Below are positions 46,617-55,811 of a DNA stretch of 64,000 nucleotides, piece by piece. How positions within the stretch are numbered: the stretch's first letter is position 1; each line of letters starts with the position of its first letter. The translations under genes and the position numbers were made by a program. The notes under the pieces are model-generated. The model was not told the DNA's origin. It did no database searches and saw only the letters and a list, made by a program, of their open reading frames with translations. The DNA is from Thermoanaerobaculia bacterium (GTDB taxonomy: Bacteria; Acidobacteriota; Thermoanaerobaculia; Multivoradales; JAIOJS01). The stretch lies in contig CAWINM010000001.1 of NCBI GenBank assembly GCA_963837455.1, positions 2,312,202-2,376,201 on the forward strand, given 5' to 3'.

Positions 46617-48341
46617 TCAGCCGAAACGGTCGCCGGCGAAGCTGATGCGGGCGGTGGTTCCTCCCGCCGGCCGCGGCTCGAGCGTGAGGGTGCCGCCGTG
46701 CAGGGCGACGATGCGATGGGCGAGGGCGAGGCCGAGCCCGACGCCACCGGGGCGATCGGAGGCGAAGGGCTGGAACAGGCGCTGGCGCATCTCTGCCGAC
46801 ACCCCGGGGCCATGGTCGCGGATGGCGATCTCGAAGGCGCCGTCGCGCCAGCCGGTCTCCACCTCCACCGGCGTCGTGGCGCCGCTGCGCTGCTGGGCCT
46901 CGAGAGCGTTGCGCAGCAGGTTGCGCAGGGCCCGCTCGAGTAGCTGGGGGTCACCCGGCAGCACCGCCGGCGGCGTCGGCTCGGCTCGCAAGGCCAGGGC
47001 CGCGCCGTCGAGGGCGGGGTCGGCGGCGGCGTGCCGCACCAGCGCCATCAGGTCGACGGCGACGAGCCGCGCCGCCGCAGGATGGGCAAAGCCGAGAAAG
47101 TCGGTGACCACGCGCTGCAGCCGCTGCGTCTCGCCGCGCAGCTCGACGAGGTACTCGCCGCTGCTGGGGCCTCCGCCGTCGCGCTCGAGCAGGGTCAGAT
47201 AGCCGCCCAGCGTGGCGAGGCCGTTGCGCAGCTCGTGGGCGACGCCGGCAGAGAGCTCGCCGAGGTGTGCGAGGCTCTCCGCGAGCCGTGCCTGGTGCCC
47301 CTCGCGCTCGCTGGCCGTCAGGTCGGCGAACAGCACGAGGTAGCCGAGCAGCTCCCCACCAGGCCGCCGCAACGGGGTGACGGTGAGGCCGATGCGGTGG
47401 GGTTCGCCACCGGCGACGACCTCGCATTCGCGGCGCTGCAGCGCCTCGCCGGCGTCGATCGCCCGCTGCAGCAGCGCCAGCAGCTGGGGCTGCCCGGCGA
47501 GCAGCTCGGTCATCGGTGTACGAGGGGGAGGTGGTGGGCCCAGCAGGGTCGCCCCCGCAGGGTTGAGGGCCAGCACCTGCCCTTCGCGATCGAGCAGCAG
47601 CAGGCCGCTTTCGAGGCTCGCGGCCAGGGTTCGCTCGAGCACCACCAGCTCCTCGCTACGATCGCCAGCTCCCTCGCGGACGCCGCCAAGGGCCCGTTCG
47701 ATGGTGGCGAGGAGAAAGGCCGCTTCGTCCTCGGCTCCGCTGGCGCCGAGCTCGCGGGCACGCCGTAGCAGCGTCTCGTAGGGGCGCAGCAGTTGGCGCA
47801 GGAAGAAGAGGACCCACAGCAGCACCGCCACGCTGGCGCCCAGCGCGGTCCAGGTGAGCACCCCGAGGGCGCGGCGCTGACCGTCGAGCACCGGAGCCGC
47901 GAGGTCGAGCCGCAGCCAGCGCCGCGACGCGCCCCCGCCCAGCGGTACGAAGGCACTCACCACACCCCGCGCTTCCTCGCTGGGGCCCACCGCGATGGCA
48001 CCGTCGGGAAGCTTGCCGCCGAGGGGAGCCGCGAAGGGGCCCTCGAGCGGCTCGCCGACGGCGGCGACGAGCTGACCGCCCGGCGCGGCAACGGCGAGGC
48101 GGAGAGCCGCCGGATGGTAGCCGCGCAACGCGTCGGCGCCGGGAAGCTCGCCGCCGGCCAGCCGCTGGGCCGCGGCGCGAGCCGTCACCAGCGCCTCCCG
48201 CTGGCGATCGAGCAGCAGCAGGCGAATGCCGTTGCGGTAGGTGAGCACGGTGAAGCTGGTGAGGACGAGCAGCAGCACCAGCGCCACCGGGAGCATCACC
48301 CAGGCATCGCGCATCGGGCTGGGCGCTGCCGGTTGGCTCAT
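46617..48341 (-). CDS. Sensor histidine kinase (HisKA plus HATPase_c) with an N-terminal TM and periplasmic sensor
   Basis: ATG at 48341 overlaps the pilD stop (ATGA). H-box ELSAGVAHELRNGLATL, N-box LRNLLRNALEA, and G-boxes DHGPGV and GGVGLGLAL. Confidence 0.8.
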   Translation of the reverse strand: MSQPAAPSPMRDAWVMLPVALVLLLVLTSFTVLTYRNGIRLLLLDRQREALVTARAAAQRLAGGELPGADALRGYHPAALRLAVAAPGGQLVAAVGEPLEGPFAAPLGGKLPDGAIAVGPSEEARGVVSAFVPLGGGASRRWLRLDLAAPVLDGQRRALGVLTWTALGASVAVLLWVLFFLRQLLRPYETLLRRARELGASGAEDEAAFLLATIERALGGVREGAGDRSEELVVLERTLAASLESGLLLLDREGQVLALNPAGATLLGPPPPPRTPMTELLAGQPQLLALLQRAIDAGEALQRRECEVVAGGEPHRIGLTVTPLRRPGGELLGYLVLFADLTASEREGHQARLAESLAHLGELSAGVAHELRNGLATLGGYLTLLERDGGGPSSGEYLVELRGETQRLQRVVTDFLGFAHPAAARLVAVDLMALVRHAAADPALDGAALALRAEPTPPAVLPGDPQLLERALRNLLRNALEAQQRSGATTPVEVETGWRDGAFEIAIRDHGPGVSAEMRQRLFQPFASDRPGGVGLGLALAHRIVALHGGTLTLEPRPAGGTTARISFAGDRFG

Positions 48342-49111
48342 AGCAGCCGAGCGTAGCGGTCGAGGAGGGCCGGGCCGGCGAACACGGCAACACCGGCGCC
48401 ACCGGCGAGGAAGACGCCGAAGGGGAGGCGGGAGCCGAGGTCGAGGCGGCCCAACGCGATCAACGTCAGACCGACGAGCGCACCGCCGAGCGAGCCGAGG
48501 AAGACGGTGATGAGCACCCCCTGCCAGCCCAGAAAGGCTCCCACCATGGCGAGCATCTTGACGTCGCCGAGACCCATGCCCTCCTCGTGGCGCAACAGCA
48601 GCCACGCCTGCGCCAGCAGCCATAGGCCCGCACCACCGAGCGCAGCGCCGAGCAGCGACTGCCGCCAGTCGATCCAGTCGGCCCGCAGTGAGATGAGAAA
48701 CCCGATGGCGAGGCCGGGGAGGGTGATGGCGTCGGGGAGCAGGAAGTGCTCGTAGTCGATGAGGGCGAGGGCGATGAGCGCGGCGCCGAAGGCCGCCGCG
48801 GCGAGCGCGTGCCAGGTGACGCCGAAGGCCTCGAGACTGCCGACGAAGAGCGCCCCGGTGGCGGCCTCGACGAGCGGGTACCGCCAGGAGATCGGCGCCC
48901 GACAGCTCCGACAGCGCCCGCGCAGCAGCAGGAAGCTCAGCAGCGGCAGGTTGTCGCGCACCCGCAGGAGCGCCCCGCAATGCGGGCAGCGCGAGCGCGG
49001 CAGCACCGTCGACTCCTCGCGTGGCAGTCGATGGATGACGACGTTGAGATAGCTGCCGATCACCAGGCCGAGGAGCCCGGCGTAGACGTCCACCAGCACC
49101 CTGAGGGTCAT
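48338..49111 (-). CDS. pilD: Prepilin peptidase (A24 family, type 4 prepilin-like leader peptidase)
   Basis: N-terminal tetra-Cys motif (CPHCGALL...CRSCRAP) and membrane-domain motifs LALIDYEHFLLPD and GLGDVKML. ATG at 49111 overlaps the stop of the upstream membrane protein. Confidence 0.85.
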   Translation of the reverse strand: MTLRVLVDVYAGLLGLVIGSYLNVVIHRLPREESTVLPRSRCPHCGALLRVRDNLPLLSFLLLRGRCRSCRAPISWRYPLVEAATGALFVGSLEAFGVTWHALAAAAFGAALIALALIDYEHFLLPDAITLPGLAIGFLISLRADWIDWRQSLLGAALGGAGLWLLAQAWLLLRHEEGMGLGDVKMLAMVGAFLGWQGVLITVFLGSLGGALVGLTLIALGRLDLGSRLPFGVFLAGGAGVAVFAGPALLDRYARLL

Positions 49112-54220: not shown

Positions 54221-54368
54221 CTCCCAACGGCGCCCGACGGTTCATTCCGTTCGGTTTCATGAGGCTACGAGCACGGAGCATGCCAGAGGTCTGGACGGGG
54301 GTGCTGTGAGGCGTAGCACAGGGTGGGTCGGAACCCCCTGCACGAGGCCGGACGCAACTTTGTCAGAA

Positions 54369-55811
54369 TCACTGACGCGAATTGTCAATGTCAGCCATCG
54401 CCAGGCGCTCGACGAGGCGGCTGTACAGATCGGTCCCCTGGGCCAGCCCCGGAAGCGAGATCTTCTCGTTGGCCCGGCCCGCGCGCTCGGTCTCGGGGGC
54501 CAGGAGGAGGAACGGTGCGAAGCCGTAGCTGGGAATCCCTAGGGGGCGAAGAAAGCGCGAGTCGGAGGCACTCCAAGCGAGAAAGTAGGGCCCGGCGACG
54601 GGGCGGCCGTAGGTGCGGCGGATTTCGGCGGCGATCGCCTGCACAACGGGGTGATCGGTCGGGCTGATCGCTGCCGGCGGCGGCGCCGGCCGGTAGCTGA
54701 GCCAGACTCCCACCGTCATCCAGCCGGGTAGCAGATCGCGGCGCACCGTGCCGAGATCCGCCGACGGCAGCAAGTGGAAGACCATGCGCATCTCCCAGCC
54801 TCCTCCGAGCGCGGGCTTGGGCTCGAAGGGAACGAGCTCGTTGCGCAGCATCGACTGGAGGTAGCCCGGCAGGTCCAGGAAGGCGGCCGGGTCGCGAGGG
54901 AGCTCGTCGGGGTCGGCGAGCAGGCGGCGCAGGTCGCCGAGGTCGCGCGAGGATCGGTAGGCGGCCCAGAAGCGCCGCACCTCGGGGTCGACGGTCAGGC
55001 CGGTGGCGCGGAAGTCGAGCTCGGCGATGTCCTGGCGCAGCTGCTCGAGGCGTTCCCGGGTCGGGGCGCAGGCGAGGACCTCGGCGAAGCGCTTCTGCCC
55101 CACCTCGATCCCCCAGTACTTCAGGCTCTCGAGGCTACGGGCCTCGACCACGCCCCCTTCGGTGAGCACCGCCCAGGAGCGGCGCAACATCTCGGGGTGG
55201 CGGGCGAGCAGCCAGCGCATGCCGAAATCGCTGCCCGCCTCCTCGCCGGCGGTGGCGAGGAGGAGCACCGAGCGGCGAGGCCGGGGATGGCGTGCCTTGA
55301 GCTCGAGCAACGCGAGCAGCTGTGCCACCGTGTAGCTCTTCATGTCGAAGGCGCCGCGACCGTGGATGTAGGGCGCCTGGAGAACCCCGGCGAACGGGGG
55401 GTGCTCCCAGCGCTCGAGATCCTCCACCGGCTCGACGTCGAGGTGGGAGAGCAGCACCAGAGGATGCGGGTCGTCACCCGGAAGCTCCGCCCACAGGTTG
55501 GCGTGCTTCCCCACTTGCTCGATGTGCACCGGGATGCCGGCTGCCTCGAGCGGGGTCGAGAGGAAGAGGGCGCCGGCGAGCTCGTCGCCGGTGTCGCTGA
55601 CGGTGTCGATGCGCAGGTACTGCTGGAGCAGCCGAACCGGCAGCTTCGAACCCCAGTCGATCCGCGACCAGCTGGTTTCCGAAGTGGCCACCACCGGCAG
55701 GTGGAGGAGGTGGCGGGCGGCGACGGTGGCCGCTCCCACCAGGGTCAAGCTGCCGTAGAGGGCGAGTCGCGCCACGGCGCGCCGGCGCCTCTCGACCAGG
55801 CCGTAGCGCAT
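54369..55811 (-). CDS. Secreted M20-family metallopeptidase, paralog 2
   Basis: Signal/TM ALYGSLTLVGAATVAA, then VLLSHLDVEP, HGRGAFDMKS and GEEAGS. Confidence 0.8.
   Translation of the reverse strand: MRYGLVERRRRAVARLALYGSLTLVGAATVAARHLLHLPVVATSETSWSRIDWGSKLPVRLLQQYLRIDTVSDTGDELAGALFLSTPLEAAGIPVHIEQVGKHANLWAELPGDDPHPLVLLSHLDVEPVEDLERWEHPPFAGVLQAPYIHGRGAFDMKSYTVAQLLALLELKARHPRPRRSVLLLATAGEEAGSDFGMRWLLARHPEMLRRSWAVLTEGGVVEARSLESLKYWGIEVGQKRFAEVLACAPTRERLEQLRQDIAELDFRATGLTVDPEVRRFWAAYRSSRDLGDLRRLLADPDELPRDPAAFLDLPGYLQSMLRNELVPFEPKPALGGGWEMRMVFHLLPSADLGTVRRDLLPGWMTVGVWLSYRPAPPPAAISPTDHPVVQAIAAEIRRTYGRPVAGPYFLAWSASDSRFLRPLGIPSYGFAPFLLLAPETERAGRANEKISLPGLAQGTDLYSRLVERLAMADIDNSRQ

Follow-up and report, generated by a model that had tools for sequence, protein, structure and literature searches.

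A probable major type IV pilin locus of Thermoanaerobaculia with a pair of putatively exported M20-family proteins and a predicted GT-C glycosyltransferase

We analysed a 64,000-nt stretch of contig CAWINM010000001.1 from a Thermoanaerobaculia bacterium (positions 2,312,202 to 2,376,201; G+C approximately 72%), hereafter referred to as the window, which carries a cluster of seven minus-strand genes running from 55811 to 46617. Our observations indicate that this cluster is probably a major type IV pilin locus, in which standard parts are combined with a lineage-specific accessory module for periplasmic pilin modification. In the direction of transcription, the genes encode an M20-family protein (M20-2, 54369-55811), a type IV prepilin (pilin-2, 53699-54214), a second M20-family protein (M20-1, 52122-53495), a second type IV prepilin of a PilA-like family (pilin-1, 51543-52061), a polytopic YfhO-like protein of 791 aa predicted to be a GT-C-fold membrane glycosyltransferase (49108-51483, directly downstream of pilin-1), a prepilin peptidase/N-methyltransferase of the A24 family (PilD, 48338-49111) and a sensor histidine kinase (46617-48341). 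ATGA start/stop overlaps join the YfhO-like gene to the PilD gene and the PilD gene to the kinase gene, and these three genes are predicted to be translationally coupled. An intrinsic terminator-like hairpin lies 3' of pilin-2 (53646-53671, minus strand; 11-bp stem with 9 G-C pairs, 4-nt loop, T-rich tail TGCATTTTGG), and no terminator was found between pilin-1 and the YfhO-PilD-kinase genes. The initial annotation of this DNA had described seven co-directional genes in this order, with the overlaps and the terminator, and our reading of the sequence agrees with it on these points.

The two prepilins are paralogues sharing 61% identity (E 1e-58). The initial annotation gave 172 aa for both, which holds for pilin-1, while pilin-2 has 171 aa (173 aa from an upstream GTG). 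Both proteins matched PF07963 (34-41 bits, cut-off 21.2; N_methyl E 9e-11 for pilin-2) and TIGR02532 (32-36 bits, cut-off 16.3). The class III signal motif RG|FTLIELLIVVAIIG can be read in both, and each has a short leader with G as its last residue before FTLIELL, in which E occupies +5, as is characteristic of type IV pilins. A database search with pilin-1 returned 3540 matches, and the named ones within the best 120 all belong to Thermoanaerobaculia (Acidobacteriota). In species-representative genomes, full-length relatives of the window pilins were observed to fill the pilA slot of pilB-pilT-pilC-pilS-pilR-pilin loci, which were called by Pfam in one related database locus (L012) and by tblastn in four others (L013, L016, L021 and L027). 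Similarity of the head domain on its own was significant for L015 (1e-9), L021 (3e-5) and L027 (7e-4). Since the family occupies the pilA slot of canonical loci and the window pilins have putative sigma-54 promoters of their own (see below), we assign them a PilA-type identity; most likely they are PilA-type major pilins under kinase/sigma-54 control, which would use machinery encoded elsewhere. The initial annotation had suggested a self-contained surface system built around a short pseudopilus, a view that does not sit with a family whose members fill the pilin position of canonical pilB-pilT-pilC-pilS-pilR-pilin loci elsewhere in Acidobacteriota.

Each window pilin is predicted to have its own sigma-54 promoter. 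A -24/-12 promoter-like site (TGGCATGCTCCGTGCT; 54270-54285, minus strand) is located 71 nt upstream of the pilin-2 start. A second such site (TGGCTCGCCGCTTGCA; 52102-52117, minus strand), with a score of 10/11, is located 56 nt upstream of the pilin-1 start, inside the 60-nt spacer that follows the M20-1 stop. Sites of equal quality were found 17-101 nt upstream of 63 of the 65 pilin genes in the metagenomic loci L083-L136, as against 4.6% of random windows, and most members of the pilin family have such a site as well. A loose sigma-54 pattern by itself gave 19 matches in the GC-rich window and was uninformative, and it was replaced by the scored motif with this background control. The placement of a putative promoter for each pilin in the spacer after an M20 gene speaks against the idea that M20 gene and pilin are transcribed as one pair.

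Regulatory and processing genes are also present. The kinase has two transmembrane (TM) helices with PAS, HisKA and HATPase domains, is PilS-like by position, and its location 3' of PilD is conserved in related loci. A sigma-54-dependent response regulator, PilR-like by position, lies on the plus strand at about 41700-43048 (its start is approximate), roughly 3.5 kb from the kinase, and an intact orthologue stands beside the kinase in L002. In a tblastn search, the PilR of L012 matched 41934-42581 and 42752-43027. PilD was identified by strong matches to PF06750 (A24_N_bact, 117.6 bits, E 3e-34) and PF01478 (Peptidase_A24, 76.7 bits, E 2e-21), and carries CPHC, CRSC and GLGDVK motifs, that is, the Cys-rich N-terminal domain and the catalytic GxGDxK domain of A24 prepilin peptidases. 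Overall, the window resembles the pilB-pilT-pilC-pilS-pilR-pilA type IVa pilus (T4aP) loci of Geobacter and Myxococcus in its sigma-54 pilin promoters, in the nearby kinase and sigma-54 activator and in the pilin family, which stands in the pilA position of the five related loci named above. It differs from them in that its pilins stand apart from pilB, pilT and pilC and have PilD, GT-C and M20 genes as neighbours instead, and in that the kinase has a periplasmic/PAS architecture.

Between the sensor kinase and the sigma-54 regulator, at 43152-46405 on the minus strand, two genes with a GTGA start/stop overlap encode an extracytoplasmic function (ECF) sigma factor of TIGR02999 type (222 bits) and a Ser/Thr kinase of 882 aa that has tetratricopeptide repeats (TPR). 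In L002, the regulator follows directly after the kinase. Apart from one Ser/Thr kinase match in L135, related loci showed neither an ECF sigma factor nor a Ser/Thr kinase next to their pilin cluster. From this comparison of loci, the pair looks like an insertion into the locus.

Further observations were made on the pilin family. The globular part of pilin-1 alone (51546-51884, minus strand) matched 761 representative proteins at E<=1e-3. Many of these carry 2-4 tandem copies of the head domain behind a signal peptide, a lipoprotein signal or a TM anchor instead of a class III signal, for example P0361 (541 aa, four copies) and P0362 (316 aa, two copies), with P0367 also in the set; the pilin head therefore also serves as a repeated unit of extracytoplasmic proteins that are not pilins. 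Extra prepilin-type genes (GFTLIE; 184-435 aa) were seen 3' of the kinase in L001 (18099-18770), L005 (at about 17870) and L007 (15523-17400), and may encode minor pilins. Two genes for pilT-like retraction ATPases were seen in L022 (16031-18111, minus strand), just past the pilin-YfhO-PilD-kinase block.

What sets the cluster apart is that its relatives keep two putatively exported M20-family proteins and predicted GT-C glycosyltransferases beside the pilin genes. M20-1 (457 aa from a GTG start, chosen to fit the signal peptides of its orthologues) matched both Peptidase_M20 (PF01546) and M20_dimer (PF07687) in Pfam. M20-2 (480 aa) matched Peptidase_M20 (E 9e-23, 81.7 bits), with no M20_dimer match, and the two share 32% identity (E 3e-36). 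In an alignment of 18 pilin-linked M20 proteins, M20-1 and its orthologues keep all metal and catalytic residues of family M20 together with the GGH of the lid. M20-2, in which the H, D, E-E and E ligands are retained, is without the final metal-binding His and without the GGH of the lid; this His is replaced by G, D or N in M20-2 and six orthologues (L001-L005 and L007), which thus lack the full residue set of the family. Proteins of the M20-1 lineage have classical, cleavable-looking signal peptides. The N-terminus of M20-2 is Arg-rich and continues into one hydrophobic helix, and judged by this M20-2 looks like a signal-anchored membrane protein rather than a classically secreted one. Deeper M20 relatives (L019, L022 and L010b) have lipoprotein-like signals. 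The description of both M20 proteins as signal-peptide-bearing was thus correct for M20-1, and for M20-2 has to be changed to a signal-anchor-like protein with one metal ligand lost.

The best NCBIfam match of M20-1 was PRK07906, at 248 bits against a cut-off of 382, and the best DapE/ArgE models scored 70-112 bits on the M20 proteins against cut-offs of 217-412. The possibility that they are ordinary DapE or ArgE enzymes, which had been raised at the outset, was rejected, since the equivalog scores are far below the cut-offs, export signals are present and the neighbours are pilin and glycan genes. Their PDB relatives cover the N-terminal catalytic half only. We consider both to be putatively exported proteins and not biosynthetic deacylases. 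With its full set of residues, dimerisation lid and export signal, M20-1 resembles exported M20 carboxypeptidases and deacylases (CPG2/yscS-like; PRK07906/PRK09133). Its scores against the curated families are all below cut-off, however, and its subfamily differs from the nearest unlinked relatives (L137-L162) in being tied to pilin clusters.

The association of M20 and pilin genes was assessed in both directions. In the forward test, which covered 29 loci with full-length pilin relatives, an M20 gene was present beside the pilins in ten (L001-L005, L007, L010, L018, L019 and L022), and in some of these (L010, L018, L019 and L022) pilin identity had fallen to 33-45% and M20 identity to about 30-34%. 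The remaining loci, several of them on short contigs, had no M20 gene in their flanks and were mostly canonical pilBTC-SR-pilin loci or had YfhO-like genes only. In the reverse test, which started from metagenomic loci with M20 relatives, 52 of the 54 loci with M20-1 relatives at >= about 40% identity also carried pilin, PilD or YfhO genes, the same count being given for relatives at >= 47%. Of the two exceptions, L132 is a 1.7-kb contig, and L127 has YfhO-like, DPPR synthase (see below), DegT and ArnT-like genes up to the end of its 6-kb flank. No pilin, PilD or YfhO gene was found beside distant M20 relatives of 32-39% identity (0/26 loci, L137-L162), that of L138, for instance, being situated among glycolysis and transport genes. 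The contrast between 52/54 and 0/26 therefore identifies a dedicated, pilin-cluster-bound M20 subfamily. These searches carried out the co-occurrence check proposed in the initial annotation, and they show that the M20-pilin neighbourhood is not accidental: it is confined to Thermoanaerobaculia-type loci and is kept class-wide with local rearrangements.

The core of the cluster is conserved in related loci and its outer flanks are not. The general layout is a divergent GT-C-like gene, M20-2, 0-2 pilins, M20-1, 0-1 pilins, 0-3 YfhO-like genes, PilD and the kinase; M20-2 orthologues are present in most related loci, divergent from the GT-C-like gene (at 56073 in the window). That each pilin is preceded by an M20 gene, as is the case in the window, is not a conserved rule. 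The order is M20-pilin-pilin-YfhO with a single M20 gene in L002, M20-pilin-pilin-M20 in L004 and L088, and M20-2 followed directly by M20-1 and then a pilin in L114-L116, and M20-1 is followed directly by PilD in L102, L118 and L120-L122. Since the M20 paralogues share 32% identity against 61% for the pilins, and orthologues diverge at similar rates (in L001/L003/L005, 57-59% identity for M20-1 and 57-69% for the pilins), the M20 duplication must be much older than the pilin duplication. With the M20 split older and the gene order variable, the earlier interpretation of a duplicated two-gene unit could not be maintained. A rough neighbour-joining distance tree, used solely for this point, contains at least two deep pilin-linked M20 lineages.

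Operons for a type IV pilus (T4P) or a type II secretion system (T2SS) can include the genes of the substrates secreted, one of which, PulA, is a lipoprotein. It could be argued on this ground, in a way close to the idea of the initial annotation, that the M20 proteins are exoenzymes secreted or displayed by a pilus or pseudopilus machinery and encoded beside the pilins, as TcpF, CofJ and PulA are encoded beside their systems. Every pilin-linked M20 protein does bear an export signal (signal peptide, signal anchor or lipobox), and the M20 genes are tightly linked to pilin and PilD genes. We nevertheless regard this explanation as unlikely. The M20-2 lineage, which is membrane-anchored in appearance and lacks one metal ligand, is a poor fit to a nutritional exoenzyme, the pilins appear to be separate sigma-54 transcription units, and the M20 genes are set among GT-C genes and near a DPPR synthase gene rather than among those of a secretion machinery. 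The cluster itself has no machinery genes, and the initial statement that the window has no secretion ATPase, platform protein or secretin proved right: neither Pfam scans, which took in 43 further predicted genes, nor a six-frame scan for Walker A motifs of secretion ATPases turned up any of T2SS or T4P type in the window. A six-frame prepilin motif search likewise found no third prepilin in the window.

The company of glycosyltransferase-like genes bears on what the accessory module may do. The YfhO-like protein scored 20.8 bits against Pfam YfhO (PF09586), below the threshold of 28.5 and over its C-terminal 70 residues only, and about half of its close homologues carry PF09586. Its AlphaFold2 (AF2) model was of good quality (pLDDT, the predicted local distance difference test score, 87.4; pTM, the predicted template modelling score, 0.87), with a C-terminal domain that forms a beta-sandwich. 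In both structural searches the top matches of the model were all GT-C proteins, AftD (Foldseek E 1e-6) being followed by AftA, STT3 and PglB, and many of them are protein glycosyltransferases. The protein has the architecture expected of GT-C enzymes, with a polytopic N-terminal module, a conserved acidic first loop and a periplasmic domain. On the strength of the PF09586-bearing homologues and the modelled fold we assign it a predicted GT-C fold; the earlier label "GT-C/YfhO-like" stands in these two respects, although the window protein itself falls below the Pfam YfhO threshold. The gene starts approximately 60-130 nt after pilin-1. YfhO-like genes also adjoin pilins in loci that have no M20 gene (L011, L020, L021, L023, L024 and L026), and in L021 such a gene separates pilR from the pilins. 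Tandem arrays of two or three YfhO-like genes are present 3' of the pilins in L001, L099 and L106.

Other genes in the neighbourhood may also relate to glycan synthesis. A polytopic membrane protein (56073-57737, plus strand), the divergent partner of M20-2, is GT-C-like (ArnT/AftB-like) and has a DD motif in its first loop (LPLDDGWIH...YNPGE). Its NCBIfam match to a beta-arabinofuranosyltransferase is weak (22 bits), it has no Pfam match and no PDB sequence match, and its assignment to GT-C is a weak prediction. L001-L005, L007 and many of L083-L135 have a gene of this type on the 5' side of M20-2. A second YfhO-like paralogue (62204-64000, plus strand) runs off the end of the window; it has no Pfam match, shares the N-terminal loop RD...HLP...NP..APFYP with the 49108-51483 protein and has tblastn relatives in related loci. 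The region thus holds three GT-C-like proteins (49108-51483, 56073-57737 and 62204-64000). A DegT/DnrJ/EryC1 sugar aminotransferase gene (57751-58857, plus strand; Pfam E 4e-104), which is PseC/ArnB-like in NCBIfam at scores below the equivalog cut-offs, is syntenic in related loci. A UbiA-family decaprenyl-phosphate phosphoribosyltransferase (DPPR synthase; 61311-62177, minus strand) was identified by NF008977 (274 bits, cut-off 234) and NF008978 (219 bits, cut-off 207), and in L122 and L127 a homologue immediately precedes an M20 gene; in L002 and L007 a homologue is also close by.

Among YfhO proteins, those characterised add sugars to teichoic acids, and the target of ArnT is lipid A; neither is known to act on proteins. 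It is therefore conceivable that the M20, GT-C, DegT and DPPR synthase genes form an envelope glycan or lipid island which adjoins the pilins by descent, with the pilin not a substrate. The restriction of the M20 link to Thermoanaerobaculia-type loci would fit such an island, the canonical pilBTC-SR-pilin loci of other Acidobacteriota being without M20 genes. We find this explanation unlikely as well, in view of the interleaved gene order and of the M20 genes, which have remained within the pilin/PilD block in spite of many rearrangements and of changing outer flanks. The position of a YfhO-like gene between pilR and the pilins in L021 also speaks against it, and even the deepest M20 lineages (L010, L018, L019 and L022) still adjoin pilins.

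YfhO-family GT-C enzymes use polyprenyl-phosphate sugar donors. The window protein shares with the YfhO/GtlB-type enzymes of Firmicutes, which act in teichoic acid glycosylation (PMC5836110), the GT-C fold and, through its relatives, PF09586. Unlike them, it falls short of the Pfam threshold and belongs to a diderm host (bamD is in the window) with no teichoic acids; its context points to a protein acceptor, the pilin.

The idea that the two prepilins are GspG-type major pseudopilins of a T2SS whose other genes lie elsewhere draws on the alignment of TIGR01710 with about 110-130 residues of both (including DGWK.PY.YY and a S.G..G region resembling the GspG core) and on the lack of disulfide-forming cysteines in both, but it is very unlikely, since the TIGR01710 scores (52.6 and 49.7 bits, that is, 50-53 bits) are well under the equivalog cut-off of 88.85, Pfam and motif searches of the window found no T2SSE, T2SSF or secretin gene to place the prepilins within or beside gspC-M/gspD, the best N-terminal matches in PDB and NCBIfam include T4a major pilins of Geobacter and Myxococcus, relatives stand beside pilT retraction ATPases and pilS/pilR, which are T4aP features, and sigma-54 promoters are typical of pilA genes. 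The PDB profile matches extend over the N-terminal helix only (best to Geobacter PilA-N, Myxococcus PilA and Thermus PilA, then GspG), and were rejected as a discriminator since this helix does not tell T4P from T2SS pilins; the NCBIfam match to Myxococcus PilA is sub-threshold and likewise limited to the N-terminus. The word "GspG-like" in the initial annotation denotes a sub-threshold match.

The preferred reading of a type IV pilin locus with a modification module can be compared with known pilin cassettes. In group IV strains of P. aeruginosa, pilA is followed by tfpW and tfpX and by D-arabinofuranose genes, including a DPPR synthase homologue (10.1101/2020.04.19.049825). The window resembles this cassette in having a large polytopic GT-C gene directly 3' of a major pilin gene and a decaprenyl-phosphate phosphoribosyltransferase homologue in the neighbourhood, and the GT-C structural relatives include mycobacterial arabinofuranosyltransferases. 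Compared by layout and fold, the two differ in that the window protein is YfhO-like with a C-terminal beta-sandwich, whereas TfpW has TPR repeats. They differ further in that no DprE1/DprE2 homologues were found in the window, and in the presence of two pilin paralogues, PilD, a kinase and two M20 hydrolases without a Pseudomonas counterpart. General background on pilin accessory proteins is given in PMC11841053. The window is also comparable to the group I arrangement of P. aeruginosa (pilA-tfpO/pilO), where a modification gene likewise lies by the pilin. In group I pilins, a C-terminal Ser is the acceptor for O-glycosylation by TfpO. The tails of the window pilin family also usually end in Ser or Thr: an invariant RWP motif is followed by a short tail (RWPQRLSN in pilin-1, RWPQKMT in pilin-2), which ends in S/T in 74 of 119 members, as against an S+T composition of 11.8%. 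TfpO is, however, an O-antigen-ligase-type oligosaccharyltransferase and not YfhO-like, and the acceptor site in the window pilins is a proposed one. The type of C-terminal tail did not correlate with the presence of M20 genes, similar WPEG.Q[ST] tails being found with and without M20, and it was discarded as an indicator.

The most probable course of events at this locus would be as follows. The kinase and the sigma-54 activator would turn on pilin transcription in PilS/PilR fashion, and, since no terminator was found there, the pilin-1 transcript may run on into the YfhO-PilD-kinase genes. PilD would cleave and N-methylate the prepilins, and on the periplasmic side the GT-C enzyme or enzymes would transfer sugars from polyprenyl-phosphate-linked donors to the pilin, probably to the Ser/Thr-ending C-terminal tail after the invariant RWP. 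The M20 pair may perform a hydrolytic step on the pilin or the glycan, either C-terminal trimming or de-N-acylation, with M20-2 as a possible membrane-anchored, non-catalytic or altered partner. The mature pilins would then be assembled by a T4a machine (PilB/T/C/M-Q) from elsewhere in the genome. As a more specific and tentative suggestion, which we hold to be possible but rather doubtful, the M20 pair could represent an undescribed class of pilin accessory enzyme, one member active and the other degenerate, which would work with the GT-C transferases in the periplasm by trimming the variable tail after RWP to expose the terminal Ser/Thr or by de-N-acylating an amino sugar of the pilin glycan.

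Several points weigh against this interpretation. The modification, glycosylation with an M20-dependent step, is one that we infer from gene context, and the T4a machine most likely lies outside the 64-kb window. Window Pfam scans found no DprE1/DprE2-type epimerases. With 19 sequences as input, the AF2 model of the pilin reached a pLDDT of 57.6, which is insufficient for classifying the head domain, and head-domain-only similarity to the Aminicenantes-type canonical pilins (L012, L013 and L016) was not significant. In about a quarter of the pilin family, the C-terminal tail is free of Ser and Thr. On the regulatory side, the kinase lacks the 6TM domain of PilS, and the sigma-54 regulator reads as frameshifted in the assembly, its receiver, sigma-54 AAA+ and helix-turn-helix segments lying in three different frames. 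Finally, inherited synteny is a possible source of an M20 link that is found in one class.

The remaining genes of the window are housekeeping genes (uppS, cdsA, dxr, rseP, bamD, ftsEX, ruvC, rlmN, folC, tldD/pmbA, ychF and selA), and an Rfam search of the window gave no match. Several conserved genes appear frameshifted, with good segments in different frames. Besides the sigma-54 regulator (about 41700-43048, plus strand), they include those at 40313-41700 and 37463-38536 (plus strand) and at 30391-31977, 33059-35200 and 58845-60852 (minus strand), which are selA, ychF, glyA, a carboxyltransferase beta subunit gene and an MFS (major facilitator superfamily)/spermidine-synthase-like fusion gene. 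Since so many housekeeping genes are affected, the frameshifts look like indel errors of a long-read assembly rather than pseudogenes. ARAGORN predicted an 86-nt tRNA-Ala(GGC) at 34677-34762 (plus strand), within a region that is coding-like on both strands (the frameshifted carboxyltransferase and tldD/pmbA); this prediction is doubtful, as Rfam has no tRNA there at gathering score. A DUF4388 protein (23133-23954, minus strand) adjoins a 1005-aa protein (24774-27791, plus strand) which combines a receiver, a Ser/Thr kinase and a TonB C-terminal domain, an unusual combination.

Sigma-54-controlled pilin loci, PilD and pilin-adjacent glycosyltransferases are already known. The pilin accessory genes known to us encode either glycosyltransferases (TfpO, TfpW and PglL-type) or small assembly helpers (TfpX/Y/Z), and we know of no metallopeptidase-family enzyme in pilin maturation other than PilD. 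Our literature searches on pilin and M20, on YfhO and pilin and on Thermoanaerobaculia pili found no description of such a cluster, and no M20 protein in any described T4P or T2SS accessory set, in agreement with the initial view that the M20-pilin pairing lies outside these sets. A dedicated, putatively exported M20 pair, one member degenerate, inside a pilin cassette throughout a class thus appears to be undescribed, and it links an M20 subfamily with pilin genes in an entire class of Acidobacteriota that abound in soil and sediment. Regardless of what the M20 proteins do, the locus offers a testable sigma-54 pilin cassette with a polyprenyl-phosphate-sugar/GT-C module outside Proteobacteria. 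Should the pilin or its glycan prove to be the target of the M20 pair, this would be a new post-translational step in type IV pilus biology; pilus biogenesis in this class would gain a metallohydrolase maturation step besides PilD, and the surface structures of a phylum that is hard to culture would become accessible to experiment.

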